Below, one piece after another: positions 2,510 through 26,693 of a stretch of 64,000 nt of DNA (its first letter is position 1; every line of letters starts with the position of its first letter). A program made the translations under genes and the position numbers. This DNA is from Escherichia coli (lineage in GTDB: Bacteria; Pseudomonadota; Gammaproteobacteria; Enterobacterales; Enterobacteriaceae): the NCBI RefSeq assembly GCF_024298765.1, contig NZ_CP101210.1. One strand, 5' to 3'. The notes under the pieces are model-generated. The model searched no databases. It saw nothing but the letters and a program-made list of their open reading frames with translations, and was not told where the DNA came from.

Positions 2510-6025
<3,516 letters not shown>

Positions 6026-6045
6026 TGGCGTTAACAATGCGAGCG

Positions 6046-6147
6046 TGCCTGATGCGCTACGCTTATCAGGCCTACGAGACTCCTGCAATATATTGAATTT
6101 GCATGTTTTTGTAGGCCGGATAAGGCGTTCACGCCGCATCCGGCAAG
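6046..6147. repeat. REP/BIME palindromic elements downstream of gyrB
   Basis: gcctgatgcgctacgcttatcaggcctac and gtaggccggataaggcgttcacgccgcatccggcaag match REP consensus. Confidence 0.6.
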
Positions 6148-6157
6148 AAGCTATAAG

Positions 6158-6190
6158 AAAAGGGCGGAGATCATCTCCGCCCTTTTTATT
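6158..6190 (+). terminator. rho-independent terminator
   Basis: aaaagggcggagatcatctccgccctttttatt: GC stem plus T-run. Confidence 0.6.
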
Positions 6191-6264
6191 CCTGCAATCC
6201 GCAATTATCATCCCACAGAACTATACTTTTTGAGTCAACACGTAACGCTTTACAGGTGATTATC

Positions 6265-6663
6265 ATGGGCCTTTTTGATGACGTTGTCGGCGCCTTTCTG
6301 AAAGGCGATGCGGGGAAATATCAGGCGATTTTAAGTTGGGTTGAGGAGCAGGGCGGCATTCAGGTGCTGCTGGAAAAACTGCAAAGTGGCGGTTTAGGTG
6401 CCATTCTCTCAACCTGGCTGAGTAATCAACAGGGCAACCAACCAGTTAGCGGCGAGCAACTGGAATCGGCGCTCGGCACAAATGCGGTGTCCGATCTCGG
6501 GCAAAAACTGGGCGTGGATACCAGTACAGCTTCCAGTTTACTGGCAGAACAATTGCCGAAGATTATTGATGCACTCTCACCGCAAGGTGAAGTGTCACCA
6601 CAAGCCAATAACGATCTGCTTTCCGCAGGCATGGAACTGCTGAAAGGGAAACTCTTCCGCTAA
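6265..6663 (+). CDS. yidB: YidB family protein (DUF937)
   Basis: 132-aa product from MGLFDDVVGAF; position between gyrB and yidA as in K-12. Confidence 0.8.
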   Translation: MGLFDDVVGAFLKGDAGKYQAILSWVEEQGGIQVLLEKLQSGGLGAILSTWLSNQQGNQPVSGEQLESALGTNAVSDLGQKLGVDTSTASSLLAEQLPKIIDALSPQGEVSPQANNDLLSAGMELLKGKLFR

Positions 6664-6777
6664 GCAAAAGGGGAGCACGCAACGCGCGTTGCATCCCCCT
6701 TTTCCCTCGGGTGTTGTACTGATTTTTGAGCGGAATCGCGTTAGCATGGGTCAGGAACCAATCTACCTGGGGAACTC

Positions 6778-7590
6778 ATGGCTATCAAACTCATTGCTAT
6801 CGATATGGATGGCACCCTTCTGCTGCCCGATCACACCATTTCACCCGCCGTTAAAAATGCGATTGCCGCAGCTCGCGCCCGTGGCGTGAATGTCGTGCTA
6901 ACGACGGGTCGCCCTTATGCAGGTGTGCACAATTACCTGAAAGAGCTGCATATGGAACAGCCGGGCGACTACTGCATTACTTATAACGGCGCGCTGGTAC
7001 AGAAGGCCGCTGATGGTAGCACCGTGGCGCAAACCGCTCTCAGCTATGACGACTACCGTTTCCTGGAAAAACTCTCTCGCGAAGTCGGTTCTCATTTCCA
7101 CGCCCTGGACCGCACCACGCTGTACACCGCCAATCGTGATATCAGCTACTACACGGTGCATGAATCTTTCGTTGCCACCATTCCGCTGGTGTTCTGCGAA
7201 GCGGAGAAAATGGACCCCAATACCCAGTTCCTGAAAGTGATGATGATTGATGAACCTGCCATCCTCGACCAGGCCATCGCGCGTATTCCGCAGGAAGTGA
7301 AAGAAAAATACACCGTGCTGAAAAGTGCGCCGTACTTCCTCGAAATCCTCGATAAACGCGTTAACAAAGGTACGGGTGTGAAATCACTGGCCGACGTGTT
7401 AGGTATTAAACCGGAAGAAATCATGGCGATTGGCGATCAGGAAAACGACATCGCAATGATTGAATATGCAGGCGTCGGTGTGGCGATGGATAACGCTATT
7501 CCTTCGGTGAAAGAAGTGGCGAACTTTGTCACCAAATCCAACCTTGAAGATGGCGTGGCATTTGCTATTGAGAAGTATGTGCTGAATTAA
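6778..7590 (+). CDS. yidA: HAD-family sugar phosphatase (Cof-type)
   Basis: 270 aa; HAD motif I DMDGTLL near N-terminus; Cof-like GDQENDIAM. Confidence 0.85.
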   Translation: MAIKLIAIDMDGTLLLPDHTISPAVKNAIAAARARGVNVVLTTGRPYAGVHNYLKELHMEQPGDYCITYNGALVQKAADGSTVAQTALSYDDYRFLEKLSREVGSHFHALDRTTLYTANRDISYYTVHESFVATIPLVFCEAEKMDPNTQFLKVMMIDEPAILDQAIARIPQEVKEKYTVLKSAPYFLEILDKRVNKGTGVKSLADVLGIKPEEIMAIGDQENDIAMIEYAGVGVAMDNAIPSVKEVANFVTKSNLEDGVAFAIEKYVLN

Positions 7591-7633
7591 TTAGTGAATG
7601 GGCAAACGGCATGAATGCGTTTGCCCGCAGCGA

Positions 7634-8290
7634 TTAACAATTTCTGGTCGTGCATAAAATCAGGAACTGGAGTGGTGACGTTACTATATCCAGCGTAAGA
7701 GTGACTGGCAGCAGCGCATTAACGAGGCCGCGCGGGACGCCATCTGTTGCTTTGTACTCATAAAATCCCACCGTAAAGGGTTGATGGAAAACCATCACGT
7801 TTGAGTAATCCGCTTTTTTATTTTTCTGGTGGATTGAGCCTTTCAAACCGTCCAGCATCCATGTACAACGCCGGGTATCACAAATAAAACCATATTGTGT
7901 TGCCAGTGCCTTATCTTCTTCGTTGTTCCAGTCGTAATAGAGCGTAATAGCACCAGAGAAATTCTTATTACTGCTGCTTAAAATAAATTTCGCGTTATCA
8001 GAAACGGTGATTCTTTCACCATGGATTGCCGGATCGTTCAGCATTTTAACCACCTCATCGCCGCCGGTGGTCAACAGATAGTCCAACGATTCACCAACAA
8101 AAACATAGCCTTTCGTACCGTTACTGTCTTCAGCCAGCGATAAACCCTTAATCGTGTCTGACCGCCATTGCTCGGCATGTGGACGGCTTGCAGTATTGGA
8201 AACCAATCCCCAGGTGATACATCCGGTCAACGCAAATGCCAAAGAACACAAACCGGCAGCCTTAAAAAATCCCTTAAAATTCAACTTCAT
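7634..8290 (-). CDS. yidX: putative lipoprotein YidX
   Basis: Start at MKLNFKGFF; lipobox LTGC after hydrophobic signal peptide; 218 aa. Confidence 0.7.
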
Positions 8291-8566
8291 GATTAATCCT
8301 TTAAACGAGTAGCTAAGCCGTTGAAAGCATACTCTTCTTTCCCTCCTGTTTAGCGCCTGACATCCCTTTTCAGATTTCTGCCCGACGCATGTCATTTTTT
8401 ATGTATTGTTCTTTTTGTGATCTAAATTGTAGTACAACAATATAAGTTTGTACTACATTAGGCGCACAGCAAACGCGAACGTCATCACGCTGGTACTACA
8501 AAGTTGCCGCGTTATGCATCGATCGGGGTAAAGTAGAGAAGAACATACAGAGCACAAGGACTCTCC

Positions 8567-9256
8567 ATGACTCTCAATAAAACCGATCGCATCGTTATTA
8601 CGCTGGGTAAACAGATCGTTCACGGCAAATACGTACCAGGCTCTCCACTTCCGGCTGAGGCGGAGCTCTGTGAAGAGTTTGCAACCTCGCGCAACATCAT
8701 CCGTGAGGTGTTTCGTTCGCTGATGGCGAAGCGGCTGATTGAAATGAAACGTTATCGCGGGGCGTTTGTGGCTCCGCGTAACCAGTGGAATTACCTCGAC
8801 ACTGACGTACTGCAATGGGTGCTGGAAAACGACTATGACCCACGGCTTATCAGTGCAATGAGCGAAGTGCGAAACCTGGTAGAGCCGGCTATTGCCCGTT
8901 GGGCAGCAGAGCGCGCGACCTCCAGCGATCTGGCGCAGATTGAATCGGCGCTGAACGAGATGATTGCCAACAATCAGGACCGCGAAGCGTTTAACGAAGC
9001 GGATATTCGCTACCACGAGGCGGTGCTGCAGTCGGTGCATAACCCGGTGTTACAGCAACTTAGCATTGCGATCAGTTCGCTGCAGCGGGCGGTTTTTGAA
9101 CGAACCTGGATGGGCGATGAGGCCAACATGCCGCAAACGCTCCAGGAACATAAGGCGCTGTTCGATGCAATACGGCATCAGGACGGCGATGCGGCAGAGC
9201 AGGCGGCGCTTACCATGATCGCCAGCTCGACACGAAGGTTAAAGGAAATCACATGA
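8567..9256 (+). CDS. dgoR: GntR/FadR-family regulator of galactonate operon
   Basis: 229 aa; GntR HTH at N-terminus; first gene of dgoRKADT cluster. Confidence 0.9.
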   Translation: MTLNKTDRIVITLGKQIVHGKYVPGSPLPAEAELCEEFATSRNIIREVFRSLMAKRLIEMKRYRGAFVAPRNQWNYLDTDVLQWVLENDYDPRLISAMSEVRNLVEPAIARWAAERATSSDLAQIESALNEMIANNQDREAFNEADIRYHEAVLQSVHNPVLQQLSIAISSLQRAVFERTWMGDEANMPQTLQEHKALFDAIRHQDGDAAEQAALTMIASSTRRLKEIT

Positions 9257-10131
9257 CAGCTCGCTACATCGCAATTGACTGGGGATCGACCAATCTGCGC
9301 GCCTGGCTTTATCAGGGCGACCACTGCCTGGACAGCAGGCAATCAGAAGCAGGCGTCACGCGCCTGAACGGAAAATCTCCGGCTGCGGTGTTAGCAGAAG
9401 TCACGACCGACTGGCGTGAAGAGAATACGCCAGTGGTGATGGCAGGAATGGTCGGCAGCAATGTCGGCTGGAAAGTTGCACCGTATTTATCTGTTCCTGC
9501 CCGTTTTTCGTCTATTGGCGATCAATTAACGTCGGTTGGCGACAATATCTGGATTATTCCCGGATTATGCGTCTCTCATGACGATAACCACAATGTGATG
9601 CGCGGCGAAGAAACACAATTGATCGGCGCGCGTGCTCTCGCTCCTTCCTCTCTTTATGTTATGCCCGGTACCCATTGCAAATGGGTGCAGGCCGATAGCC
9701 AGCAAATCAACGATTTTCGCACCGTGATGACCGGTGAATTACATCATTTACTGTTAAATCACTCATTGATTGGCGCAGGTTTGCCGCCGCAGGAAAACTC
9801 TGCCGATGCCTTCGCGGCTGGTCTTGAGCGTGGCTTTAATGCTCCCGCCATATTGCCGCAGCTTTTTGAAGTTCGCGCCTCGCATGTGCTGGGAACACTT
9901 CCCCGCGAACAGGTCAGCGAATTTCTCTCTGGTTTGTTGATTGGCGCAGAGGTTGCCAGTATGCGCGACTATGTGACCCATCAACACGCCATCACCCTTG
10001 TCGCCGGAACATCGCTGACCGCGCGCTACCAGCAAGCCTTTCAGGCGATGGGTTGCGACGTGACGGCGGTGGCGGGCGACACGGCATTTCAGGCTGGTAT
10101 AAGGAGCATCGCTCATGCAGTGGCAAACTAA
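9253..10131 (+). CDS. dgoK: 2-dehydro-3-deoxygalactonokinase
   Basis: 292 aa; 4-bp overlap with dgoR stop; operon context. Confidence 0.9.
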   Translation: MTARYIAIDWGSTNLRAWLYQGDHCLDSRQSEAGVTRLNGKSPAAVLAEVTTDWREENTPVVMAGMVGSNVGWKVAPYLSVPARFSSIGDQLTSVGDNIWIIPGLCVSHDDNHNVMRGEETQLIGARALAPSSLYVMPGTHCKWVQADSQQINDFRTVMTGELHHLLLNHSLIGAGLPPQENSADAFAAGLERGFNAPAILPQLFEVRASHVLGTLPREQVSEFLSGLLIGAEVASMRDYVTHQHAITLVAGTSLTARYQQAFQAMGCDVTAVAGDTAFQAGIRSIAHAVAN

Positions 10132-10732
10132 ACTCCCGCTGATCGCCATTTTGCGCGGCATTACGCCCGACGAGGCGCTGGCGCATGTTGGCGCGGTGAT
10201 TGACGCCGGGTTCGACGCGGTTGAAATCCCGCTGAATTCCCCTCAATGGGAGAAAAGCATTCCCGCCATCGTTGATGCGTATGGCGATAAGGCGTTGATT
10301 GGCGCAGGTACGGTACTGAAACCTGAACAGGTCGATGCACTCGCCAGGATGAGCTGCCAGCTCATCGTTACGCCCAATATCCATAGTGAAGTGATCCGCC
10401 GTGCGGTGGGCTACGGCATGACCGTTTGCCCCGGCTGCGCGACGGCGACCGAAGCCTTTACCGCGCTCGACGCGGGCGCTCAGGCGCTGAAAATATTTCC
10501 GTCATCGGCTTTTGGTCCGCAATACATCAAAGCGTTAAAAGCGGTATTACCACCGGACATCGCAGTCTTTGCCGTTGGCGGCGTGACGCCAGAAAACCTG
10601 GCGCAGTGGATAGACGCAGGTTGTGCAGGGGCGGGCTTAGGCAGCGATCTCTATCGCGCCGGGCAGTCCGTAGAACGCACCGCGCAGCAGGCAGCAGCAT
10701 TTGTTAAGGCGTATCGAGAGGCAGTGCAATGA
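10115..10732 (+). CDS. dgoA: 2-dehydro-3-deoxy-6-phosphogalactonate aldolase
   Basis: 205 aa; overlaps dgoK end; KDPG-aldolase family; operon context. Confidence 0.9.
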
Positions 10733-11877
10733 AAATCACCAAAATTACCACGTATCGTTTACCTCCCCGCTGGATGTTCCTGAAAATTGAAACCGATGAA
10801 GGCGTGGTCGGCTGGGGCGAGCCAGTGATTGAAGGCCGCGCCCGCACGGTGGAAGCGGCAGTTCACGAGCTGGGTGACTATTTGATTGGTCAGGATCCAT
10901 CGCGCATCAATGACTTATGGCAAGTGATGTATCGCGCCGGATTTTATCGTGGCGGTCCAATCCTGATGAGCGCCATCGCCGGGATCGACCAGGCGTTATG
11001 GGATATCAAAGGCAAAGTGCTGAATGCGCCGGTCTGGCAACTGATGGGCGGCCTGGTTCGCGACAAAATTAAAGCCTACAGTTGGGTCGGCGGCGATCGT
11101 CCGGCGGATGTTATCGACGGCATTAAAACCCTGCGCGAAATCGGCTTCGATACCTTCAAACTGAACGGTTGTGAAGAACTGGGGCTAATTGATAACTCCC
11201 GCGCGGTAGATGCGGCAGTCAACACCGTGGCACAAATTCGTGAAGCTTTTGGCAATCAGATTGAGTTTGGTCTTGATTTCCACGGTCGCGTCAGCGCGCC
11301 GATGGCGAAAGTGCTGATTAAAGAACTGGAGCCGTATCGCCCGCTGTTTATTGAAGAGCCGGTGCTGGCAGAACAAGCCGAATACTACCCGAAACTGGCG
11401 GTACAAACGCATATTCCACTGGCGGCGGGTGAACGCATGTTCTCACGTTTCGATTTTAAACGTGTGCTGGAGGCGGGTGGTATTTCGATTCTGCAACCAG
11501 ATCTCTCCCACGCGGGCGGTATTACCGAATGCTACAAAATTGCCGGAATGGCAGAAGCCTATGACGTGACCCTTGCGCCGCACTGTCCGCTCGGACCGAT
11601 TGCACTGGCGGCTTGCCTGCATATCGACTTTGTTTCCTATAACGCCGTACTTCAGGAACAAAGTATGGGCATTCATTACAACAAAGGCGCGGAGTTACTC
11701 GACTTTGTGAAAAACAAAGAAGACTTCAGCATGGTCGGCGGTTTCTTTAAACCATTAACGAAACCGGGCTTAGGTGTGGAAATCGACGAAGCTAAAGTTA
11801 TTGAGTTCAGTAAAAATGCCCCGGACTGGCGTAATCCGCTCTGGCGTCATGAAGATAACAGCGTAGCAGAGTGGTAA
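10729..11877 (+). CDS. dgoD: D-galactonate dehydratase
   Basis: 382 aa; enolase-superfamily (mandelate racemase-like) sequence; overlaps dgoA stop. Confidence 0.92.
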
Positions 11878-11996
11878 TTCCTGCCACGTAAGCCCCTCAT
11901 CGGGCACTAAAACAGCAATACAAAAATATAACCCTCTGTAAATTACAGGGCATGGTGAGCGGCTTCGCTATGCCCAAAATCTGGAGAAAGCTCGCT

Positions 11997-13289
11997 ATGG
12001 ATATTCCCGTTAATGCAGCAAAGCCGGGGCGTCGGCGTTATCTGACGCTGGTGATGATCTTTATTACGGTGGTCATTTGTTATGTTGACCGCGCTAACCT
12101 GGCCGTGGCTTCCGCCCATATTCAGGAAGAGTTCGGTATTACCAAAGCGGAAATGGGCTATGTATTTTCGGCCTTCGCCTGGCTTTATACACTATGTCAG
12201 ATCCCCGGCGGTTGGTTTTTAGATCGCGTAGGTTCACGCGTGACTTATTTTATTGCGATATTTGGCTGGTCAGTGGCGACTTTATTCCAGGGCTTTGCCA
12301 CGGGATTGATGTCATTAATTGGTCTGCGCGCAATAACCGGTATTTTCGAAGCGCCCGCTTTCCCGACCAATAACCGGATGGTGACCAGCTGGTTCCCGGA
12401 ACATGAACGCGCTTCCGCCGTTGGTTTTTATACGTCTGGTCAGTTTGTCGGTCTGGCGTTTTTGACTCCGCTGCTGATCTGGATTCAGGAAATGTTGAGC
12501 TGGCACTGGGTGTTCATTGTCACCGGTGGTATCGGCATTATCTGGTCGCTGATTTGGTTTAAGGTTTATCAGCCGCCGCGCCTGACTAAAGGCATCAGCA
12601 AAGCTGAACTGGATTACATTCGTGATGGCGGCGGTCTGGTGGATGGTGATGCGCCGGTGAAAAAAGAGGCGCGTCAGCCGTTAACAGCCAAAGACTGGAA
12701 ACTGGTGTTCCATCGTAAACTGATCGGCGTCTATCTTGGGCAATTTGCGGTGGCTTCTACACTGTGGTTTTTCTTAACCTGGTTCCCGAACTATTTAACC
12801 CAGGAAAAAGGAATCACGGCGCTGAAAGCAGGTTTTATGACCACGGTGCCATTCCTCGCGGCGTTTATTGGCGTCCTGCTCTCTGGCTGGGTCGCGGATC
12901 TGCTGGTACGTAAGGGCTTTTCACTGGGCTTTGCGCGTAAAACGCCGATTATCTGCGGCTTGCTGATCTCCACCTGCATTATGGGTGCGAACTACACCAA
13001 CGATCCGATGATGATTATGTGCCTGATGGCGCTGGCATTCTTCGGCAACGGTTTTGCTTCGATAACCTGGTCGCTGGTCTCTTCTCTGGCACCGATGCGC
13101 CTGATTGGTTTAACCGGCGGTGTGTTTAACTTTGCCGGTGGTCTGGGCGGCATCACCGTTCCGCTGGTGGTGGGGTACCTTGCGCAGGGTTACGGTTTCG
13201 CGCCTGCACTGGTTTATATCTCCGCCGTCGCGTTGATTGGCGCGCTCTCTTACATCCTGCTGGTGGGCGATGTGAAGCGCGTTGGATAA
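11997..13289 (+). CDS. dgoT: D-galactonate:H+ symporter (MFS)
   Basis: 430 aa from [18 protein letters not shown]; 12-TM MFS pattern. Confidence 0.9.
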
Positions 13290-17455: not shown

Positions 17456-19117
17456 ATGAGTGATATAGCATTAACGGTCAGTATTCTGGCTTTGGTGGCG
17501 GTCGTCGGGTTGTTTATCGGCAACGTCAAGTTTCGCGGTGTTGGATTGGGCATTGGCGGCGTGCTGTTCGGTGGGATCATCGTCGGCCATTTTGTTTCTC
17601 AGGCGGGGATGACATTAAGTAGCGATATGCTGCATGTTATTCAGGAATTTGGCCTGATCCTGTTCGTTTATACCATCGGGATTCAGGTAGGGCCGGGCTT
17701 CTTTGCCTCATTGCGCGTCTCCGGATTACGCCTCAACCTGTTTGCTGTTCTGATCGTCATCATCGGGGGGCTGGTTACCGCCATCCTGCATAAACTGTTT
17801 GATATTCCACTGCCGGTAGTACTGGGGATTTTCTCCGGTGCGGTAACCAATACGCCAGCACTGGGGGCAGGGCAGCAGATCTTGCGCGACCTGGGGACAC
17901 CGATGGCGATGGTCGATCAAATGGGGATGAGCTATGCGATGGCGTATCCATTTGGGATTTGCGGCATTTTGTTCACTATGTGGATGCTGCGGGTTATTTT
18001 CCGCGTCAATGTTGAGACTGAGGCCCAGCAGCACGAGTCCACGCGAACCAACGGCGGTGCGCTAATCAGGACGATTAACATCCGAGTTGAGAATCCTAAT
18101 TTGCATAATTTAGCCATTAAAGATGTGCCGATTCTCAATGGCGATAAAGTTATTTGCTCACGATTGAAACGAGAAGAAACCCTAAAAGTGCCTTCGCCAG
18201 AAACCGTTATTCAACTGGGCGATTTGCTGCATCTGGTGGGGCAGCCTGCGGATTTACATAATGCGCAACTGGTGATTGGTCAGGAGGTCGATACCTCGCT
18301 GTCTACGAAAGGCACTGACTTGCGCGTCGAGCGTGTGGTGGTCACCAATGAAAACGTGCTCGGTAAACGTATTCGCGACCTGCACTTTAAAGAACGCTAT
18401 GACGTTGTTATCTCGCGCCTGAACCGTGCTGGTGTTGAATTAGTTGCAAGTAGCGATATCAGCCTGCAGTTCGGCGATATCCTCAACCTGGTGGGGCGTC
18501 CGTCCGCAATTGATGCCGTTGCCAATGTGCTGGGGAATGCGCAGCAAAAACTGCAACAGGTTCAGATGCTGCCAGTGTTTATTGGTATCGGGCTTGGCGT
18601 ATTGTTAGGTTCTATTCCCGTCTTTGTGCCTGGGTTCCCGGCGGCGTTGAAACTCGGGCTGGCGGGCGGTCCGCTGATTATGGCGTTGATCCTCGGGCGT
18701 ATCGGCAGTATCGGCAAGCTGTACTGGTTTATGCCACCAAGCGCTAACCTGGCGCTACGCGAGTTAGGCATTGTGCTCTTTCTCTCGGTGGTTGGCCTGA
18801 AATCCGGCGGCGATTTTATCCATACACTGGTGGATGGCGAAGGGCTAAGCTGGATTGGTTATGGTGCCCTGATCACCGCCGTTCCGCTGATTACTGTTGG
18901 CATTCTGGCGCGGATGTTAGCCAAAATGAATTACCTGACCATGTGCGGGATGCTGGCTGGCTCCATGACCGATCCTCCGGCGCTGGCGTTTGCTAATAAT
19001 CTTCATCCAACCAGCGGTGCGGCGGCGCTTTCTTACGCCACTGTCTATCCGTTGGTGATGTTCCTGCGCATTATCACCCCCCAATTACTGGCGGTGCTCT
19101 TCTGGAGTATCGGTTAA
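17456..19117 (+). CDS. yidE: putative transporter YidE (AAE family, two TrkA-C domains)
   Basis: 553 aa from [19 protein letters not shown]; duplicated membrane halves flanking soluble domains. Confidence 0.85.
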
Positions 19118-19206
19118 CTCTTTTCCGGGTGGAGTCGCCGTAAATGGTACTCCACCTGGTATTTCTGAACATCATCGAGTCATTTACACACTCGCCATTC
19201 TGGTTA

Positions 19207-20103
19207 TTACCTGTCCGTATTCTTCAGCACAGCTGACGGCGCATAACCAAATTTATGCTTAAAGGCTTTGCTGAAATGAAAGGAGTCGAAGAAGTTGAGC
19301 GTATCAGCGACTTCGCCAACCGAGTTCCCTTGTTGCTTTAATAGCGATAGCGCCAGATCCAGACGTGCATTGAGGTAATATTCTTTCGGCGTCTTGCCGG
19401 TATAGCGTAAAAACAGACGACGCAACCAGGCTTCGCTACAGGGGATCGTGGCAGCCATATCAGCTACGCTCCAGCGTTGTTGCAGACTGGCATGTAAAGT
19501 GGCAATTAGTTTTTCAATTTGCCGCCGTTGTGGATCTTTTTTACCGTCTGCGTACATAAGACAAATCCACTGATAAATAATTTTCGTCAGAAAAGCGACT
19601 GCCAGATTATTTTTTATTGCTTCTGGTGAAGTAATTAATTCAGCAACTTCGGTGAGTTCCTGATTATAAACTTCGCCATTATAAATAACGCTTTGCTGAC
19701 CGACGGGAATATCCATCATACTGGTGGGGGTAAATTCCATCCAGTACTGTTCCCAGACCAAACCTTCACAGTGATAAGAGTGAATATCCATTGGCTTTAA
19801 AAATATAATACAGTTGCCATGCAGAGTTATTTGCTCGTCATTCTTTAAAAGAATTTTCCCACATCCTTGTACGGTATACACCGCAACCCATGAGTTGGCG
19901 ATAAGCGGTTTCTTCTTGTCCCGCGGCCAGATCACCCGATAATGCTCGTCGGCGTAGGTATGCCAGAGCGATATCAGAGAAATTCCGCTGGAGATCACAT
20001 TTTCGTTAATCAATAAGGGAATATTGTACGGAGTTTCGTTTTTTACATCCGAACTTTGCAATTTTCCATTCATTTTAATATCCCTCCGGCGAATTATGCT
20101 CAC
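19207..20103 (-). CDS. yidL: AraC-family transcriptional regulator
   Basis: 298-aa ORF; C-terminal AraC HTH (...FDSFHFSKAFKHKFGYAPS); divergent from yidK. Confidence 0.75.
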   Translation of the reverse strand: MSIIRRRDIKMNGKLQSSDVKNETPYNIPLLINENVISSGISLISLWHTYADEHYRVIWPRDKKKPLIANSWVAVYTVQGCGKILLKNDEQITLHGNCIIFLKPMDIHSYHCEGLVWEQYWMEFTPTSMMDIPVGQQSVIYNGEVYNQELTEVAELITSPEAIKNNLAVAFLTKIIYQWICLMYADGKKDPQRRQIEKLIATLHASLQQRWSVADMAATIPCSEAWLRRLFLRYTGKTPKEYYLNARLDLALSLLKQQGNSVGEVADTLNFFDSFHFSKAFKHKFGYAPSAVLKNTDR

Positions 20104-20239
20104 AACCTGAACTTAACAGAAAACAATCCGTTCAGGGATACGACGTTTGTATTTTAAGAATCTGACTGCCTGACCCGACGCATTTTACCTCTCCCTATAT
20201 TCATGCGTCCGGGACATAAACATAAATAAGGGCTATGAG

Positions 20240-21955
20240 ATGAATTCGTTACAAATCTTGAGTTTTGTCGGTTTTACGCTGCTGGTAGCGGTCATCACCT
20301 GGTGGAAGGTCCGTAAAACAGATACCGGATCGCAACAAGGCTATTTTCTTGCCGGACGTTCACTAAAAGCGCCGGTTATTGCCGCTTCGTTAATGCTAAC
20401 CAACCTTTCCACGGAACAACTGGTCGGCCTTTCTGGGCAGGCCTACAAAAGTGGCATGTCGGTGATGGGCTGGGAAGTCACCTCTGCAGTGACGCTGATC
20501 TTCCTCGCGCTAATCTTTTTACCGCGCTATCTGAAGCGCGGCATTGCCACCATCCCCGATTTTCTGGAGGAACGTTATGATAAAACGACGCGTATTATCA
20601 TCGACTTCTGCTTCCTCATTGCCACCGGCGTCTGCTTTCTGCCGATTGTTCTCTATTCCGGCGCGTTGGCGCTCAACAGCCTGTTTCATGTGGGTGAGTC
20701 GCTACAACTTTCCGATGGTGCGGCTATCTGGTTACTGGTTATTTTGCTTGGTCTGGCGGGAATTTTGTATGCGGTGATCGGCGGACTGCGCGCAATGGCA
20801 GTGGCGGACTCCATTAACGGTATTGGGCTGGTTATTGGCGGGTTGATGGTGCCGGTATTTGGCCTGATCGCGATGGGCAAGGGCAGCTTTATGCAGGGCA
20901 TTGAGCAACTCACCACCGTTCACGCCGAGAAATTAAACTCAGTCGGCGGCCCGACCGATCCCTTGCCGATTGGCGCGGCATTTACCGGTTTGATTCTGGT
21001 GAACACCTTTTACTGGTGTACAAATCAGGGCATCGTGCAACGCACGCTGGCGTCAAAAAGCCTGGCGGAAGGGCAAAAGGGGGCGCTGTTAACGGCGGTG
21101 CTGAAAATGCTCGACCCGCTGGTACTGGTGCTGCCAGGGTTGATTGCGTTTCATCTGTATCAGGATCTACCGAAAGCCGACATGGCCTACCCGACGCTGG
21201 TCAATAACGTTCTGCCAGTGCCACTGGTGGGTTTCTTCGGCGCGGTGTTATTTGGTGCGGTGATCAGTACCTTCAACGGCTTTCTGAATAGCGCCAGTAC
21301 GTTATTCAGTATGGGTATTTACCGGCGCATCATTAACCAGAATGCCGAGCCGCAGCAGCTGGTCACCGTCGGGCGCAAATTTGGTTTCTTTATCGCCATC
21401 GTTTCGGTGCTGGTAGCGCCGTGGATCGCCAACGCGCCGCAGGGGCTGTATAGCTGGATGAAACAGCTCAACGGCATTTACAACGTGCCGCTGGTTACCA
21501 TCATCATTATGGGCTTTTTCTTCCCGCGCATCCCGGCGCTGGCGGCAAAAGTGGCGATGGGGATTGGCATAATCAGCTACATCACCATCAACTATCTGGT
21601 GAAGTTCGACTTCCATTTCCTCTATGTGCTGGCCTGTACGTTCTGCATCAACGTGGTCGTGATGCTGGTGATCGGTTTTATCAAACCGCGCGCCACGCCG
21701 TTCACCTTCAAAGATGCGTTTGCGGTGGACATGAAACCGTGGAAAAACGTCAAGATCGCGTCAATGGGCATCCTGTTCGCGATGATTGGCGTCTATGCCG
21801 GGCTGGCTGAATTCGGCGGCTACGGTACGCGCTGGTTAGCGATGATCAGTTATTTCATTGCCGCCGTAGTGATTGTCTACCTGATTTTTGATAGCTGGCG
21901 GCATCGTCACGACCCAGCCGTAACCTTTACTCCCGACGCGAAGGATAGCCTATGA
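20240..21955 (+). CDS. yidK: sodium:solute symporter family transporter
   Basis: 571 aa, polytopic membrane protein; position upstream of sulfatase yidJ. Confidence 0.8.
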   Translation: MNSLQILSFVGFTLLVAVITWWKVRKTDTGSQQGYFLAGRSLKAPVIAASLMLTNLSTEQLVGLSGQAYKSGMSVMGWEVTSAVTLIFLALIFLPRYLKRGIATIPDFLEERYDKTTRIIIDFCFLIATGVCFLPIVLYSGALALNSLFHVGESLQLSDGAAIWLLVILLGLAGILYAVIGGLRAMAVADSINGIGLVIGGLMVPVFGLIAMGKGSFMQGIEQLTTVHAEKLNSVGGPTDPLPIGAAFTGLILVNTFYWCTNQGIVQRTLASKSLAEGQKGALLTAVLKMLDPLVLVLPGLIAFHLYQDLPKADMAYPTLVNNVLPVPLVGFFGAVLFGAVISTFNGFLNSASTLFSMGIYRRIINQNAEPQQLVTVGRKFGFFIAIVSVLVAPWIANAPQGLYSWMKQLNGIYNVPLVTIIIMGFFFPRIPALAAKVAMGIGIISYITINYLVKFDFHFLYVLACTFCINVVVMLVIGFIKPRATPFTFKDAFAVDMKPWKNVKIASMGILFAMIGVYAGLAEFGGYGTRWLAMISYFIAAVVIVYLIFDSWRHRHDPAVTFTPDAKDSL

Positions 21956-23445
21956 AACGCCCCAATTTTCTGTTCATCATGACCGATACCCAGGCCACCA
22001 ATATGGTCGGTTGCTATAGCGGTAAGCCGCTGAATACGCAAAATATTGATAGTCTGGCGGCGGAAAGTATTCGCTTTAATTCCGCCTATACCTGTTCACC
22101 GGTTTGTACACCAGCGCGCGCCGGGCTGTTTACCGGTATCTACGCTAACCAGTCCGGCCCGTGGACCAACAACGTCGCGCCAGGTAAAAACATTTCCACC
22201 ATGGGGCGCTACTTTAAGGATGCGGGCTATCACACCTGTTACATTGGCAAATGGCATCTCGACGGTCATGACTATTTCGGCACTGGCGAGTGTCCGCCGG
22301 AGTGGGACGCTGATTACTGGTTCGATGGGGCGAACTACCTTAGCGAACTGACGGAAAAAGAGATCAGCCTGTGGCGCAATGGCCTAAACAGCGTTGAGGA
22401 TTTACAGGCGAACCATATCGACGAAACCTTCACCTGGGCGCACCGCATCAGCAATCGGGCGGTAGATTTTCTGCAACAGCCCGCGCGCGCCGACGAACCT
22501 TTCCTGATGGTGGTTTCGTATGATGAGCCGCATCACCCGTTCACCTGTCCGGTGGAGTATTTAGAGAAATACGCTGATTTTTACTACGAACTTGGCGAGA
22601 AATCACAGGATGACCTGGCGAACAAACCGGAACATCACCGCTTATGGGCGCAGGCGATGCCATCGCCAGTCGGTGATGACGGGCTTTATCACCATCCGCT
22701 CTATTTTGCCTGCAATGACTTTGTTGATGACCAAATCGGACGTGTCATCAATGCCTTAACGCCAGAGCAACGTGAAAATACGTGGGTCATTTATACCTCC
22801 GATCATGGTGAAATGATGGGCGCACATAAGCTGATCAGTAAAGGGGCGGCGATGTATGACGACATCACCCGCATTCCGCTGATCATCCGTTCGCCGCAAG
22901 GGGAGCGGCGACAGGTCGATACGCCAGTCAGTCATATTGACTTACTGCCGACAATGATGGCGCTGGCAGATATTGAAAAACCAGAGATTCTGCCGGGGGA
23001 TAATATCCTTGCCGTAAAAGAACCACGTGGCGTGTTGGTGGAATTTAATCGCTACGAGATTGAGCATGACAGCTTTGGCGGTTTTATTCCGGTGCGTTGC
23101 TGGGTAACGGATGACTTTAAACTGGTGCTCAACCTCTTCACCAGTGATGAACTTTACGATCGCCGTAATGACCCAAATGAAATGCATAACCTGATCGATG
23201 ATATCCATTTTGCCGACGTTCGCAGCAAAATGCATGACGCCTTATTGGATTATATGGACAAAATTCGCGATCCGTTCCGCAGTTATCAATGGAACCTGCG
23301 TCCGTGGCGCAAAGATGCACAACCGCGCTGGATGGGGGCGTTTCGTCCACGCCCACAGGATGGTTATTCTCCAGTGGTACGCGACTATGACACCGGTTTA
23401 CCGACACAAGGGGTGAAGGTGGAAGAGAAAAAACAGAAGTTCTGA
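21952..23445 (+). CDS. yidJ: Cys-type sulfatase
   Basis: 497 aa; sulfatase signature C-T-P-A-R (CSPVCTPARAGLFTG); overlaps yidK stop. Confidence 0.85.
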   Translation: MKRPNFLFIMTDTQATNMVGCYSGKPLNTQNIDSLAAESIRFNSAYTCSPVCTPARAGLFTGIYANQSGPWTNNVAPGKNISTMGRYFKDAGYHTCYIGKWHLDGHDYFGTGECPPEWDADYWFDGANYLSELTEKEISLWRNGLNSVEDLQANHIDETFTWAHRISNRAVDFLQQPARADEPFLMVVSYDEPHHPFTCPVEYLEKYADFYYELGEKSQDDLANKPEHHRLWAQAMPSPVGDDGLYHHPLYFACNDFVDDQIGRVINALTPEQRENTWVIYTSDHGEMMGAHKLISKGAAMYDDITRIPLIIRSPQGERRQVDTPVSHIDLLPTMMALADIEKPEILPGDNILAVKEPRGVLVEFNRYEIEHDSFGGFIPVRCWVTDDFKLVLNLFTSDELYDRRNDPNEMHNLIDDIHFADVRSKMHDALLDYMDKIRDPFRSYQWNLRPWRKDAQPRWMGAFRPRPQDGYSPVVRDYDTGLPTQGVKVEEKKQKF

Positions 23446-23504
23446 TGCATTATTGCTGTTCCTGGCCTAATTTTTCGGCGAGGAACAGTTTACAAGGAGC
23501 AACA

Positions 23505-23852
23505 ATGAAAATTTCCCGCCTCGGAGAAGCGCCCGATTACCGCTTCTCGCTGGCTAATGAGCGTACTTTTCTGGCGTGGATCCGTACTGCACTAGGATTT
23601 CTGGCGGCGGGGGTTGGGCTTGATCAACTTGCGCCAGATTTCGCCACGCCCGTCATCCGCGAACTGCTGGCGTTGTTGTTGTGTCTGTTTTCCGGCGGGT
23701 TAGCGATGTATGGCTACTTGCGCTGGTTACGCAATGAAAAAGCGATGCGCCTGAAAGAGGACCTGCCCTATACCAACAGCTTATTAATCATCAGTTTAAT
23801 ATTGATGGTCGTGGCAGTGATCGTCATGGGACTGGTGTTGTATGCCGGATAG
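23505..23852 (+). CDS. yidH: inner-membrane protein (DUF202-like)
   Basis: 115 aa from MKISRLGEAPDYRF; two TM helices; name assigned by length and position. Confidence 0.6.
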   Translation: MKISRLGEAPDYRFSLANERTFLAWIRTALGFLAAGVGLDQLAPDFATPVIRELLALLLCLFSGGLAMYGYLRWLRNEKAMRLKEDLPYTNSLLIISLILMVVAVIVMGLVLYAG

Positions 23853-24204
23853 CCGCAAAGCCAGACGCATTGCCGACCCAGGGCTGCAGCCGGAACGCAC
23901 ATCACTGGCGTGGTTTCGTACCATGCTGGGCTACGGCGCGTTGATGGCGTTGGCTATCAAACACAACTGGCACCAGGCGGGCATGTTATTCTGGATTTCG
24001 ATTGGCATCCTCGCCATCGTGGCGCTGATCCTCTGGCACTACACCCGTAATCGCAATTTAATGGATGTCACGAATAGCGATTTTTCCCAATTTCACGTAG
24101 TCCGTGACAAATTTTTGATCTCCCTCGCGGTGTTATCTCTCGCAATACTGTTTGCTGTAACGCATATACATCAACTTATCGTATTTATTGAGAGAGTCGC
24201 ATGA
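23842..24204 (+). CDS. yidG: inner-membrane protein
   Basis: 120-aa ORF overlapping yidH end; hydrophobic segments; name by position. Confidence 0.6.
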   Translation: MPDSRKARRIADPGLQPERTSLAWFRTMLGYGALMALAIKHNWHQAGMLFWISIGILAIVALILWHYTRNRNLMDVTNSDFSQFHVVRDKFLISLAVLSLAILFAVTHIHQLIVFIERVA

Positions 24205-24698
24205 CAGGAAGTCAGGTCATTGATGCTGAAGAGGACAGGCATAAACTGGTTGTAGAGTATAAGGATGCTCTGCAACCTGCCGATTTTTATCACAATTTCA
24301 AACAGCTGGGCATCCGCTCCGTACAGCTTATTCCCCATCTTGAATTTGATGACCGGGGCGATCTGACGGCCGCTTCGGTGACAGCAGAGCTGTGGGGGAA
24401 ATTTTTAATTGCCCTGTTCGAGTGTTGGGTGCGGGCAGATATCAGTCGTATTTCGATTGAACTTTTTGACACCACCTTACAAAAATGGTGTGGCAGCGAA
24501 AAGTCGCAACCGCGCCGTGACTGCCAGGCGTGCGACTGGCATCGGCTGTGCCCGCACGCTCGGGAAGATAAACCAGACAACGTGCTTTGTGCGGGCTATC
24601 AGGCGTTTTATTCTTACTCCGCGCCGCATATGCGGGTGATGCGTGATCTGATAAAGCAGCATCGTTCTCCCATGGAGCTGATGACGATGCTGCGGTGA
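24201..24698 (+). CDS. yidF: truncated anaerobic sulfatase-maturase-like protein
   Basis: 165 aa; C-terminal Cys cluster CQACDWHRLCP...C resembling a SPASM domain; no CxxxCxxC radical-SAM motif. Confidence 0.7.
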   Translation: MTGSQVIDAEEDRHKLVVEYKDALQPADFYHNFKQLGIRSVQLIPHLEFDDRGDLTAASVTAELWGKFLIALFECWVRADISRISIELFDTTLQKWCGSEKSQPRRDCQACDWHRLCPHAREDKPDNVLCAGYQAFYSYSAPHMRVMRDLIKQHRSPMELMTMLR

Positions 24699-24705
24699 CG
24701 TGAGC

Positions 24706-25890
24706 TTAAACAGGCTGCCCCTGATGCGACATCCGCGTCGCCAGCGGTAGCCAGCACAGCACGATCAACAATCCCATTAAGGTCATCAACAATCCCAGGC
24801 TGCCCTGACCGGTTTGCGGCAACATCGCAGAGAGCGACGCCAGCACGCCGGAACCAATGTTTTGCAGACCGCCGACCAGCGCGCCAGCGGTGCCCGCCAG
24901 GAAGGGGAACGGCTCCATCGCGCCGCTGGTAGCCAGTGGAAACAGCATCCCGGCACCGAAAAAGAACAGCGCGGCGGGAATGAGCAGCGTCCAGACATTC
25001 ATCACGCCAAACCAGTCGGGGATCCACATCAGCAAGCCAGCCAGCAGGCAGCAGATAACCGACTGCCACATTAACGTGGAGAAGCGTTTATTGGGACGTC
25101 CGGCAAACCATGCGCCAAAAAACGCTGCCGGAATCGGCAGAATAAACAAAATACTGACCGTCATACTGCTCAACCCTAACACCGCGCCCATCAGCACGCC
25201 GGAGCAGGCTTCAAAGGCGGCAATCCCGGCCAGACCGCCAATCAGCATCAGCAAATAACAGTTAAAACCGCCGTTACCGAAAAGCGTTTTATAACTGGTA
25301 AGCAGGCGCGTGCGCGGTGCGTCGACCGGACGCGTTTCCGGCATCCAGCGGGCCATACTGAAGGTCACACCGGCACAAAGAACCAACAAAAAGAGATAAC
25401 AGGCGCGCCAGTTCCACATCGTATCCAGCAGACCGCCGATTAGCGGTGCGAGCAACGGACTGACAAGAATCCCCATGTTTAACAGGCTGTTAGCATGGCG
25501 CAACTGTGTCCGTTCATATAAATCACGCGGCAAAGTACGCGCCATTACGCCGCCAACGCCGGTGCCCATGCCCTGCATCGCGCTGGCGGCAATCAATACC
25601 GTCAAACTGGAGGTCGTGACCGCGACTAGCGTTGCCAGCATAAAAATGGACATTCCGACGAGGATCACCGGTCGGCGACCCACACGGTCGGAAATTGGGC
25701 CATAAAACAGCTGTGAGACACCGTAAGTCAGCAGATAAGCGCCCATTACGCTCTGCACCGCCCCTTCACGGACGTTGAGATCGCGCGCCATATCGGCAAT
25801 GGCTGGAATATAAATGGTTTGCGCCATCTGACCGACGGCCACGAGTAATACCAACATCAATAACAAATTGACGTTTCTATGCCTTTTCAT
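24706..25890 (-). CDS. emrD: multidrug efflux MFS transporter EmrD
   Basis: 394 aa from MKRHRNVNLLLMLVLLVAVGQ; 12-TM MFS. Confidence 0.92.
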   Translation of the reverse strand: MKRHRNVNLLLMLVLLVAVGQMAQTIYIPAIADMARDLNVREGAVQSVMGAYLLTYGVSQLFYGPISDRVGRRPVILVGMSIFMLATLVAVTTSSLTVLIAASAMQGMGTGVGGVMARTLPRDLYERTQLRHANSLLNMGILVSPLLAPLIGGLLDTMWNWRACYLFLLVLCAGVTFSMARWMPETRPVDAPRTRLLTSYKTLFGNGGFNCYLLMLIGGLAGIAAFEACSGVLMGAVLGLSSMTVSILFILPIPAAFFGAWFAGRPNKRFSTLMWQSVICCLLAGLLMWIPDWFGVMNVWTLLIPAALFFFGAGMLFPLATSGAMEPFPFLAGTAGALVGGLQNIGSGVLASLSAMLPQTGQGSLGLLMTLMGLLIVLCWLPLATRMSHQGQPV

Positions 25891-26169
25891 TATCACGGAT
25901 GCTTTTATAAAAATAATTAGAATAAGTCACTACGCATTCCCATAAATGCGGGAGAGGAATCTATCACATTGATAAATGTTAGCCAGATATACGCCAGGAA
26001 TGGGGAATTGTTTAGCGGCAGAATATGTAAACAAAAGCGGCAATAAATGTTGCCGGGAGAGATGGTAGGGCGGATAAGATGCGTCAGCATCGCATCCGAC
26101 ACCAACCCGCACGCTAAATATAAAAGGGGAGCGGTTACCCGCTCCCCTTTAGTGCGACTTGAATCTGAA

Positions 26170-26259
26170 TTACTTCAGGTATTTCAGAACAGCATCAAGC
26201 AGTTGCAGTGCTGCAACAATGAGTTTGAGGATAAGAATGGCGATATCCACCAGGCTCAT
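26170..26259 (-). CDS. tisB: type I toxin TisB (SOS-induced membrane peptide)
   Basis: 29-aa ORF MSLVDIAILILKLIVAALQLLDAVLKYLK on minus strand; between emrD and ivbL as in K-12. Confidence 0.85.
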   Translation of the reverse strand: MSLVDIAILILKLIVAALQLLDAVLKYLK

Positions 26260-26493
26260 ACGCGTCTCCTGTGGTTCAGGAGCACTGCCAGCTGACGTAC
26301 CTTTCCGCTGCCTGTTGCCAGCTGTTGTGCACGCGGTATCTCAAGGAGAAACGTTGTGCTTGTTGACATAACACAGTGTGCTCACGCGGGGTTAAGGCGC
26401 TGACGGCACCACCCGTTTCAGCCAGGACTTAGTGCGCCGGGTAACGATGCGGCCCCCGCATAACACATTGCGTACAGTGATATTATAGAAGTT

Positions 26494-26513
26494 TACTGTA
26501 TAAATAAACAGTA
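26494..26513. promoter_or_regulatory. LexA box (tisAB / istR-2 control)
   Basis: tactgtataaataaacagta fits CTGT-N8-ACAG. Confidence 0.7.
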
Positions 26514-26618
26514 ATATTGGACAAAACGCAAACTGTGATCGATACTCAACTATGCACTAAATACGTCAAAATTCGTGCCGAAATTGCGCGTTCTGCGCGG
26601 AACACGTATACTTTCAGT

Positions 26619-26693
26619 GTTGACATAATACAGTGTGCTTTGCGGTTACCAGCCGCAGGCGACTGACGAAACCTCGCTCCGGCGGGGTTTTTT
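26619..26693 (+). ncRNA. istR: IstR-1 antitoxin sRNA
   Basis: sigma-70 promoter TTGCGC-17nt-TATACT upstream; gttgacataatacagtgtgct complementary to tisAB leader at 26361-26381; terminator hairpin ccucgcuccggcgggg plus U-run. Confidence 0.65.

Follow-up and report, generated by a model that had tools for sequence, protein, structure and literature searches.

The yidF gene of Escherichia coli was analysed in a stretch of 64,000 nucleotides from contig NZ_CP101210.1 (assembly GCF_024298765.1), referred to here as the window, where it lies downstream of the sulfatase gene yidJ. The interval is a conserved enterobacterial cluster, yidL / yidK-yidJ-yidH-yidG-yidF, and YidF is a reduced homologue of the anaerobic sulfatase-maturating enzymes (anSMEs). 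The best explanation of the data, to which we give a probability of about 0.75, is that the maturase of an ancestral cluster was shortened by two in-frame deletions to a selected remnant that is not a maturase, and that YidJ is activated in trans. The ancestral cluster would have encoded a regulator, a sodium symporter, a cytoplasmic Cys-type sulfatase, two small DUF202 proteins and a dedicated radical-SAM/SPASM maturase. In Escherichia one deletion would have taken out the barrel core and, with it, the site that cleaves S-adenosylmethionine (SAM); the other would have removed that half of the SPASM domain which carries auxiliary cluster I (Aux I). The short YidF would persist as a small cytoplasmic protein, probably with an iron-sulphur (Fe-S) cluster of the [4Fe-4S] type or another metal at the site of auxiliary cluster II (Aux II), and would work with YidH and YidG and not as a maturase. 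YidJ would be activated by AslB or YdeM under anaerobic conditions, or by the unidentified Cys-type formylglycine activity of E. coli.

YidF matches the anaerobic sulfatase maturase profile TIGR03942 with an E-value of 6.9e-22 and 78 bits, against a cut-off of 349.45, and the match covers the profile only from about position 160 onward. There is no Pfam match to YidF at E ≤ 0.1, and the radical-SAM core PF04055 (about 230 residues) was not found. The protein contains six cysteines, at positions 75, 97, 108, 111, 117 and 130, and no CxxxCxxC motif. A six-frame scan of positions 23400–24750 gave a single chance match, inside yidH and out of frame, and the statement in the initial annotation that YidF lacks the motif is borne out both for the protein and for in-frame matches in this interval. 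Searches of the whole window by tblastn, with either the first 155 residues of a full-length orthologue (E > 0.8) or the deleted SPASM segment as query, returned nothing. A hidden or split N-terminal half of YidF was considered and rejected, as neither the six-frame scan nor the tblastn searches of the window showed one. The RefSeq/PGAP label for YidF, 'radical SAM protein', is misleading as the protein has no radical-SAM domain or motif; YidF fails four defining features of the maturase family, and the name is therefore unfit.

Compared with full-length orthologues of 370 residues, YidF corresponds to roughly residues 1–7, 145–245 and 300–370. In a MAFFT alignment of YidF, AslB and a full-length maturase from Atlantibacter, YidF shows two gaps. 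After the first seven residues about 145 are absent, among them those of the cluster motif and of the GGE region, and the alignment resumes at the fifth barrel strand, such that only the last two beta/alpha units of the barrel remain. At the start of the SPASM domain a further 55 or so residues are absent. A phmmer search against the PDB (4K36) aligned YidF residues 28–95 to anSMEcpe residues 176–246, and C108, C111, C117 and C130 to C317, C320, C326 and C348. The latter four are the Aux II ligands of anSMEcpe, while C255, C261, C276 and C330 are the Aux I ligands (PMC5715301). All four Aux I ligands are lost in E. coli YidF, and in each of the 34 short forms compared the first three fall within the deleted stretch of about 55 residues. 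An AlphaFold model of YidF built with 44 homologues (pLDDT 81, pTM 0.79) is confident outside the Cys loop, and its only significant structural matches in the PDB are the anSMEcpe entries 4K36–4K39, with query TM-scores of 0.63–0.65.

The alignment to AslB and the anSMEs places the homology in the C-terminal half of these enzymes only, and neither an unrelated full-length family nor a CxxxCxxC motif emerged from it. The view of YidF as a truncated maturase is correct as to the loss of the radical-SAM part but understates the extent of the truncation, since about 55 SPASM residues with the Aux I cysteines are also gone. Lacking the barrel core, its SAM-cleaving [4Fe-4S] site and the part of SPASM that carries Aux I, YidF is, at the level of its sequence, predicted to be unable by itself to make the 5'-deoxyadenosyl radical or to convert Cys52 of YidJ to formylglycine.

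Full-length orthologues are found in the same position in other Enterobacteriaceae. In a metagenome-assembled contig of Atlantibacter, yidL/yidK-yidJ-yidH-yidG is followed by a maturase of about 373 residues that starts MTGCHVMAKPASSRCNLRCRYCFYL and whose gene call was split by an NN assembly gap. A distribution scan with one genome per species yielded 63 enterobacterial loci, in all of which yidH, yidG and yidF are adjacent, as they are in the other loci examined. An intact full-length yidF (367–376 residues, with CxxxCxxC, in the same slot after yidH-yidG) is present in about 25 species, the hosts including Citrobacter braakii, C. werkmanii, C. sedlakii, Kluyvera, Kosakonia, Trabulsiella, Yokenella, Pseudocitrobacter and Atlantibacter. 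These proteins have a complete SPASM domain and the same MTGC... start as the short forms. A short YidF of 165–178 residues is encoded in about 32 species, in Escherichia, the C. freundii complex, Salmonella enterica arizonae and diarizonae, Klebsiella, Raoultella, Superficieibacter, Silvania and Leclercia adecarboxylata. A few loci encode forms of intermediate size (192, 220, 249, 350 and 360 residues). Only 3 of the 63 loci have a frameshifted yidF, one of them in a poor assembly; frameshifted copies were seen in the E. albertii type strain and in L. adecarboxylata NCTC13032. The near-full-length genes of Enterobacteriaceae RIT691 and Kosakonia oryziphila have in-frame SPASM deletions of 14 and 23 residues, and the cluster motif of the RIT691 gene is also broken (CNLNSR-CFY); these two look like early stages of the same reduction.

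A protein search revealed further full-length orthologues in Enterobacter, C. koseri, C. rodentium, Salmonella, Erwinia and Psychromonas. Three of these contexts were examined. The order sulfatase-DUF202-DUF202-maturase is kept in the Erwinia and Psychromonas loci, while in the third, a Salmonella-labelled locus, the second gene is an open reading frame of 85 residues without a recorded Pfam match. The order shared across these loci indicates that the ancestral arrangement was a sulfatase and a dedicated maturase with two DUF202 genes between them.

The truncation had been taken as peculiar to this strain. The same 165-residue YidF is found in K-12, short forms are present in other genera, and by gene presence yidF occurs in 5420 of 5426 complete E. 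coli genomes, compared with 5131 of 5426 for yidJ. About 290 of these genomes keep yidHGF without yidJ. In strain B25FEP (NZ_CM177971.1) a phosphotransferase system/6-phospho-alpha-glucosidase block that carries an IS200/IS605 transposase and TnpB stands in place of yidL, yidK and most of yidJ, with yidHGF left intact. Loci with yidHGF and without yidLKJ are also found in the C. freundii complex, E. albertii and several Klebsiella species, and in Kosakonia and Yokenella a full-length yidF is kept where yidJ is absent.

The short YidF is under purifying selection, is kept in frame and is translationally coupled to yidG. Pairwise Nei-Gojobori estimates of the ratio of non-synonymous to synonymous substitution (dN/dS) for the short forms are 0.06–0.3 across several genera at dS of 0.4–1. 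Individual values are about 0.12 for the window against other Escherichia species (dS about 0.7), 0.11–0.3 in Escherichia and Citrobacter taken together, 0.10–0.28 within Citrobacter and Salmonella, and 0.06–0.08 in the K. oxytoca group; full-length forms give 0.07–0.2. As the gene is in frame with a dN/dS of about 0.1–0.3, the short YidF is not a decaying pseudogene, and the comparative data contradict the idea of a dead remnant. Equivalents of C317, C320 and C348 are present in 34 of 34 short forms, together with at least one cysteine at the C326 or C330 position, and none of the 34 keeps the radical-SAM or Aux I cysteines. In the C-terminal tail synonymous divergence is normal and amino acid change is low, and the constraint therefore acts on the protein. 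An overlapping RNA element was considered as the cause of the C-terminal conservation and rejected: Rfam gave nothing in positions 19000–26500, synonymous change is normal, and the downstream neighbour varies (emrD or dsdA).

A neighbour-joining tree of YidH and YidG follows taxonomy, with short and full-length loci interleaved. The short forms of Leclercia and Silvania are nearest to a Leclercia full-length gene (75% identity). The sizes of the deletions vary by lineage (378–430 nucleotides for the N-terminal, 156–177 nucleotides for the SPASM deletion), the N-terminal junctions differ, and one C. amalonaticus form still has CxxxCxxC. Taken together, these observations favour recurrent deletion, with at least two independent reductions. 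By contrast, the limits of the SPASM deletion are nearly the same in every short form, and one old SPASM deletion that later spread by recombination may be the origin instead.

YidJ is, as far as its sequence can tell, an intact Cys-type S1 sulfatase. It matches the Pfam Sulfatase profile PF00884 over its whole length (positions 1–301 of 301; E = 1.4e-71; 241.7 bits, gathering score 25) and also matches SGSH_C. The C-x-P-x-R signature reported in the initial annotation is confirmed as the sole such motif, C52-T-P-A-R, in the canonical position. It aligns to STPSR of a solved S1_30 sulfatase, the closest solved relatives of YidJ being S1 sulfatases, and is invariant in all 26 YidJ orthologues examined. 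The translation also contains IMTDTQ, IGKWHL, DEPHHP and TSDHGE, which fall in conserved matched columns with PDB 9ihk. These correspond to known active-site motifs of S1 enzymes (the N-terminal metal-binding Asp, GKWH and DHG), an assignment at the level of motifs and not of single residues. The sulfatase domain begins at residue 4 and there is no signal peptide, which places YidJ in the cytoplasm. In the Psychromonas ossibalaenae locus (3699–12858) the genes for the sulfatase, the two DUF202 proteins and the maturase lie near those for an AraC regulator, a LamB-type porin, a GH88 unsaturated glucuronyl hydrolase and an SSF transporter. This context suggests that the YidJ family desulfates imported sugars that contain uronate or are of the glycosaminoglycan type.

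In lineages with a short YidF, yidJ has a dN/dS of 0.04–0.07 with an invariant CTPAR, indistinguishable from lineages with a full-length YidF, so the enzyme is evidently in use. A search for an intact maturase, in a genome that matches the window exactly at this locus, found AslB complete (411 residues, CNLNCDYC). Both candidate maturase genes belong to the core genome, aslB being present in 5425 and ydeM in 5346 of the 5426 E. coli genomes. The constraint on yidJ and the presence of these core genes suggest that the activation of YidJ is probably supplied in trans. Benjdia and colleagues (2007, FEBS Lett) reportedly described a further formylglycine-forming system in E. coli. The anSMEs take Cys-type substrates (PMC3920027), heterologous sulfatases are matured by E. 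coli, and a formylglycine-forming system beyond aslB and ydeM has been reported for this organism (PMC8379841). The doubt that had been raised over the activation of YidJ in this strain is thus unsupported.

Several observations weigh against the reading of YidF as a selected protein with an Aux II-type site. The short forms diverge faster than the full-length ones, with 40–60% identity between genera versus 67–81%, so the constraint on them has loosened or shifted. In some C. freundii-complex sequences the third Aux II cysteine is substituted and the adjacent one retained. The YidF model has low confidence in the Cys-rich loop (pLDDT about 50–59), and dN/dS values with dS above about 1.5 are saturated. 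The protein database also holds many E. coli YidF variants of 140–149 residues, mostly from automated read assemblies, and some E. coli lineages may carry disrupted yidF alleles. If YidF were a functionless pseudogene fragment, its reading frame would survive by accident, or the inactivation would be too recent for it to have decayed. The faster evolution would agree with this, as would the loss of every element required for anSME catalysis, the frameshifted copies in E. albertii and L. adecarboxylata and the truncated variants in read assemblies. We consider it quite unlikely, given the low dN/dS at substantial dS in several genera, the fact that every deletion, whatever its size, preserves the reading frame in about 32 species, the invariance of three cysteines and a 25-residue tail despite 40–50% overall identity, and the presence of yidF in more E. 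coli genomes than yidJ.

YidF could also still aid the maturation of YidJ without radical chemistry, as an adaptor that holds the substrate, as a module that serves AslB or YdeM in electron transfer, or as a component of the unidentified Cys-type system that depends on oxygen. It descends from a dedicated maturase, stays downstream of yidJ in Escherichia, K. oxytoca, Superficieibacter and S. arizonae, and retains the Aux II site, which in anSMEs holds a surface-proximal cluster; a third system is moreover suspected in E. coli. An older EcoGene annotation reportedly listed YidF as a putative Cys-type oxidative YidJ-maturating enzyme. Such a role is nevertheless unlikely, as yidHGF is retained in many lineages without yidJ (not decisive, since other sulfatases remain there), yidI on the opposite strand uncouples yidJ from yidHGF in K-12, and the segment adjacent to Aux I is deleted, in which the catalytic base of anSMEcpe is reported to lie in the paper on structures 4K36–4K39. 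A dead YidJ, not activatable in this strain on account of the crippled maturase, is very improbable. The operon encodes no full-length maturase, and E. coli K-12 is not known for measurable sulfatase activity; against this stand the low dN/dS and invariant signature of yidJ in short-YidF lineages, the intact aslB and ydeM, and the maturation of heterologous sulfatases by E. coli (PMC8379841).

A function of YidF together with YidH and YidG is suggested by the invariable synteny, the overlapping stop and start codons and the co-retention of the three genes after loss of yidJ. Tentatively, the short YidF may have been repurposed as a small Fe-S protein with only the Aux II site, acting with YidH and YidG and reduced to about 170 residues more than once in the Enterobacteriaceae, whether as part of a third formylglycine route or in a role unrelated to sulfatases. 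There are weak hints of a part in the handling of D-amino acids. Overexpression of YidF raises resistance to D-serine according to a table entry (PMC12363166), and a D-alanine release screen picked up overexpressed YidH and YidG, though YidH failed a direct transport assay (PMC10299036). In 48 of 66 related loci of a BLAST set, which includes two duplicate C. freundii-type contigs, dsdA lies directly downstream of yidF and convergent with it, usually along with dsdX and dsdC; in E. coli emrD abuts yidF in place of dsdA. The adjacency of dsdA may be a coincidence or inherited gene order, or a functional hint.

Among known systems, the anSMEs (AtsB, AslB, anSMEcpe; TIGR03942; 4K36–4K39) share with YidF the homology and fold of its retained part, the four Aux II cysteines, the C-terminal helix and the position downstream of a sulfatase gene, and the full-length YidF orthologues are bona fide members of this family. 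E. coli YidF differs in lacking the radical-SAM motif, about 145 barrel residues and all Aux I ligands, with 165 residues compared to 370–411. AslB and YdeM are of the same family, occur in the same genomes and are likewise paired with an adjacent sulfatase gene (aslA and ydeN), but they are intact paralogues with no DUF202 genes between sulfatase and maturase. The partner of AslB, AslA, is a Ser-type enzyme (S136-S-P-T-R) with a signal peptide and is periplasmic, unlike the cytoplasmic, Cys-type YidJ. In the E. coli genome APEC O2-211 the aslA gene is at 18206–19861 of the locus, and of the two sulfatases examined, YidJ and AslA, only YidJ is Cys-type and cytoplasmic.

The CxxC-x5-C...C pattern of YidF is that of the second half of a SPASM domain. 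Known SPASM/twitch auxiliary-cluster domains are appended to a functional radical-SAM barrel, whereas that of YidF survives without the barrel cluster or Aux I, and no description of stand-alone, Aux II-only SPASM derivatives was found in the literature searched. The enzyme FGE/SUMF1 achieves the same end, the oxidation of the Cys of C-x-P-x-R to formylglycine, but is oxygen-dependent and unrelated to YidF, and nothing like it is encoded at this locus. E. coli is not known to have an FGE.

In the open literature YidF has incidental mentions only, one of which is a typographical confusion with YdiF. The yidJ-yidF pair and the short YidF have been in the K-12 annotation for decades, so finding them here is nothing unusual. 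Of modest interest is what the comparison shows (full-length ancestors, a reduction in frame under continued selection and the link to DUF202 proteins), and no description of this was found in the literature searched. YidF is a candidate case of the repurposing of an enzyme to a non-enzyme, a radical-SAM derivative that has lost all radical machinery and is still selected. The intact ancestral maturase of many relatives provides a ready complementation reagent for the activation of YidJ in E. coli, and the system bears on which E. coli activity matures Cys-type sulfatases once aslB and ydeM are deleted. It also links two uncharacterised DUF202 membrane proteins, from Psychromonas to Escherichia, with genes for sulfatases and maturases.

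The features of the locus are listed in Table 1. Over 4.5 kb it is 100% identical to several complete E. coli genomes, including APEC O2-211, whose coordinates agree with those of the window, and K-12 MG1655 has the same genes, its YidF being annotated 'uncharacterized protein YidF'. Consecutive genes overlap by 4 nucleotides (yidK/yidJ), 11 nucleotides (yidH/yidG) and 4 nucleotides (yidG/yidF). YidH and YidG score 68.9 and 46 bits with PF02656, above its gathering score of 23.4. The AraC-type gene also accompanies the transporter and sulfatase genes in Atlantibacter, Erwinia and Psychromonas.

Table 1 Coordinates of genes, motif codons and deletion junctions at the yidJ-yidF locus of the window.
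Feature	Position	Strand	Description
yidL	19207..20073	-	AraC-type regulator, divergent from yidK; from the annotation of an identical genome
yidK	20240..21955	+	Solute:sodium symporter; dN/dS 0.01–0.07
yidJ	21952..23445	+	497 residues, predicted cytoplasmic Cys-type S1 sulfatase; dN/dS 0.04–0.07
C52-T-P-A-R codons	22105..22119	+	Formylglycine signature; Cys52 is the residue to be oxidised
yidH	23505..23852	+	115 residues, DUF202 inner-membrane protein; PF02656, E = 5e-19; dN/dS 0.01–0.03
yidG	23842..24204	+	120 residues, second DUF202 membrane protein; PF02656, E = 7e-12
yidF	24201..24698	+	165 residues, reduced maturase homologue
Deletion 1 junction (approximate)	24219..24224	+	In-frame, about 426 nucleotides relative to C. 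braakii yidF; radical-SAM core including CxxxCxxC removed; from pairwise DNA and protein alignments
Deletion 2 junction (approximate)	24492..24509	+	In-frame, about 177 nucleotides; first half of SPASM and three Aux I cysteines removed
C108, C111, C117, C130 codons	24522..24590	+	Equivalents of the four Aux II ligands; phmmer to 4K36
Near-invariant C-terminal tail SAPHMRVMRDLIKQHRSPMELMTMLR codons	24618..24695	+	Invariant alignment columns
emrD	24706..25890		Convergent with yidF

In the window only 59 nucleotides (23446–23504) separate yidJ from yidH. The gene yidI, 450 bp long and on the opposite strand, is inserted at this point in K-12 and many other strains. The short gap without yidI means that yidJ and yidHGF can form one transcription unit here, which is separated in K-12. 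Scans of the locus for promoter and terminator consensus sequences performed no better than on shuffled sequence and were not used. Downstream of emrD, positions 25972–26693 hold the ysdE, tisB, istR type I toxin-antitoxin locus, with istR at 26564–26693 (Rfam, 150 bits), an ordinary feature that bears no relation to YidF or YidJ.

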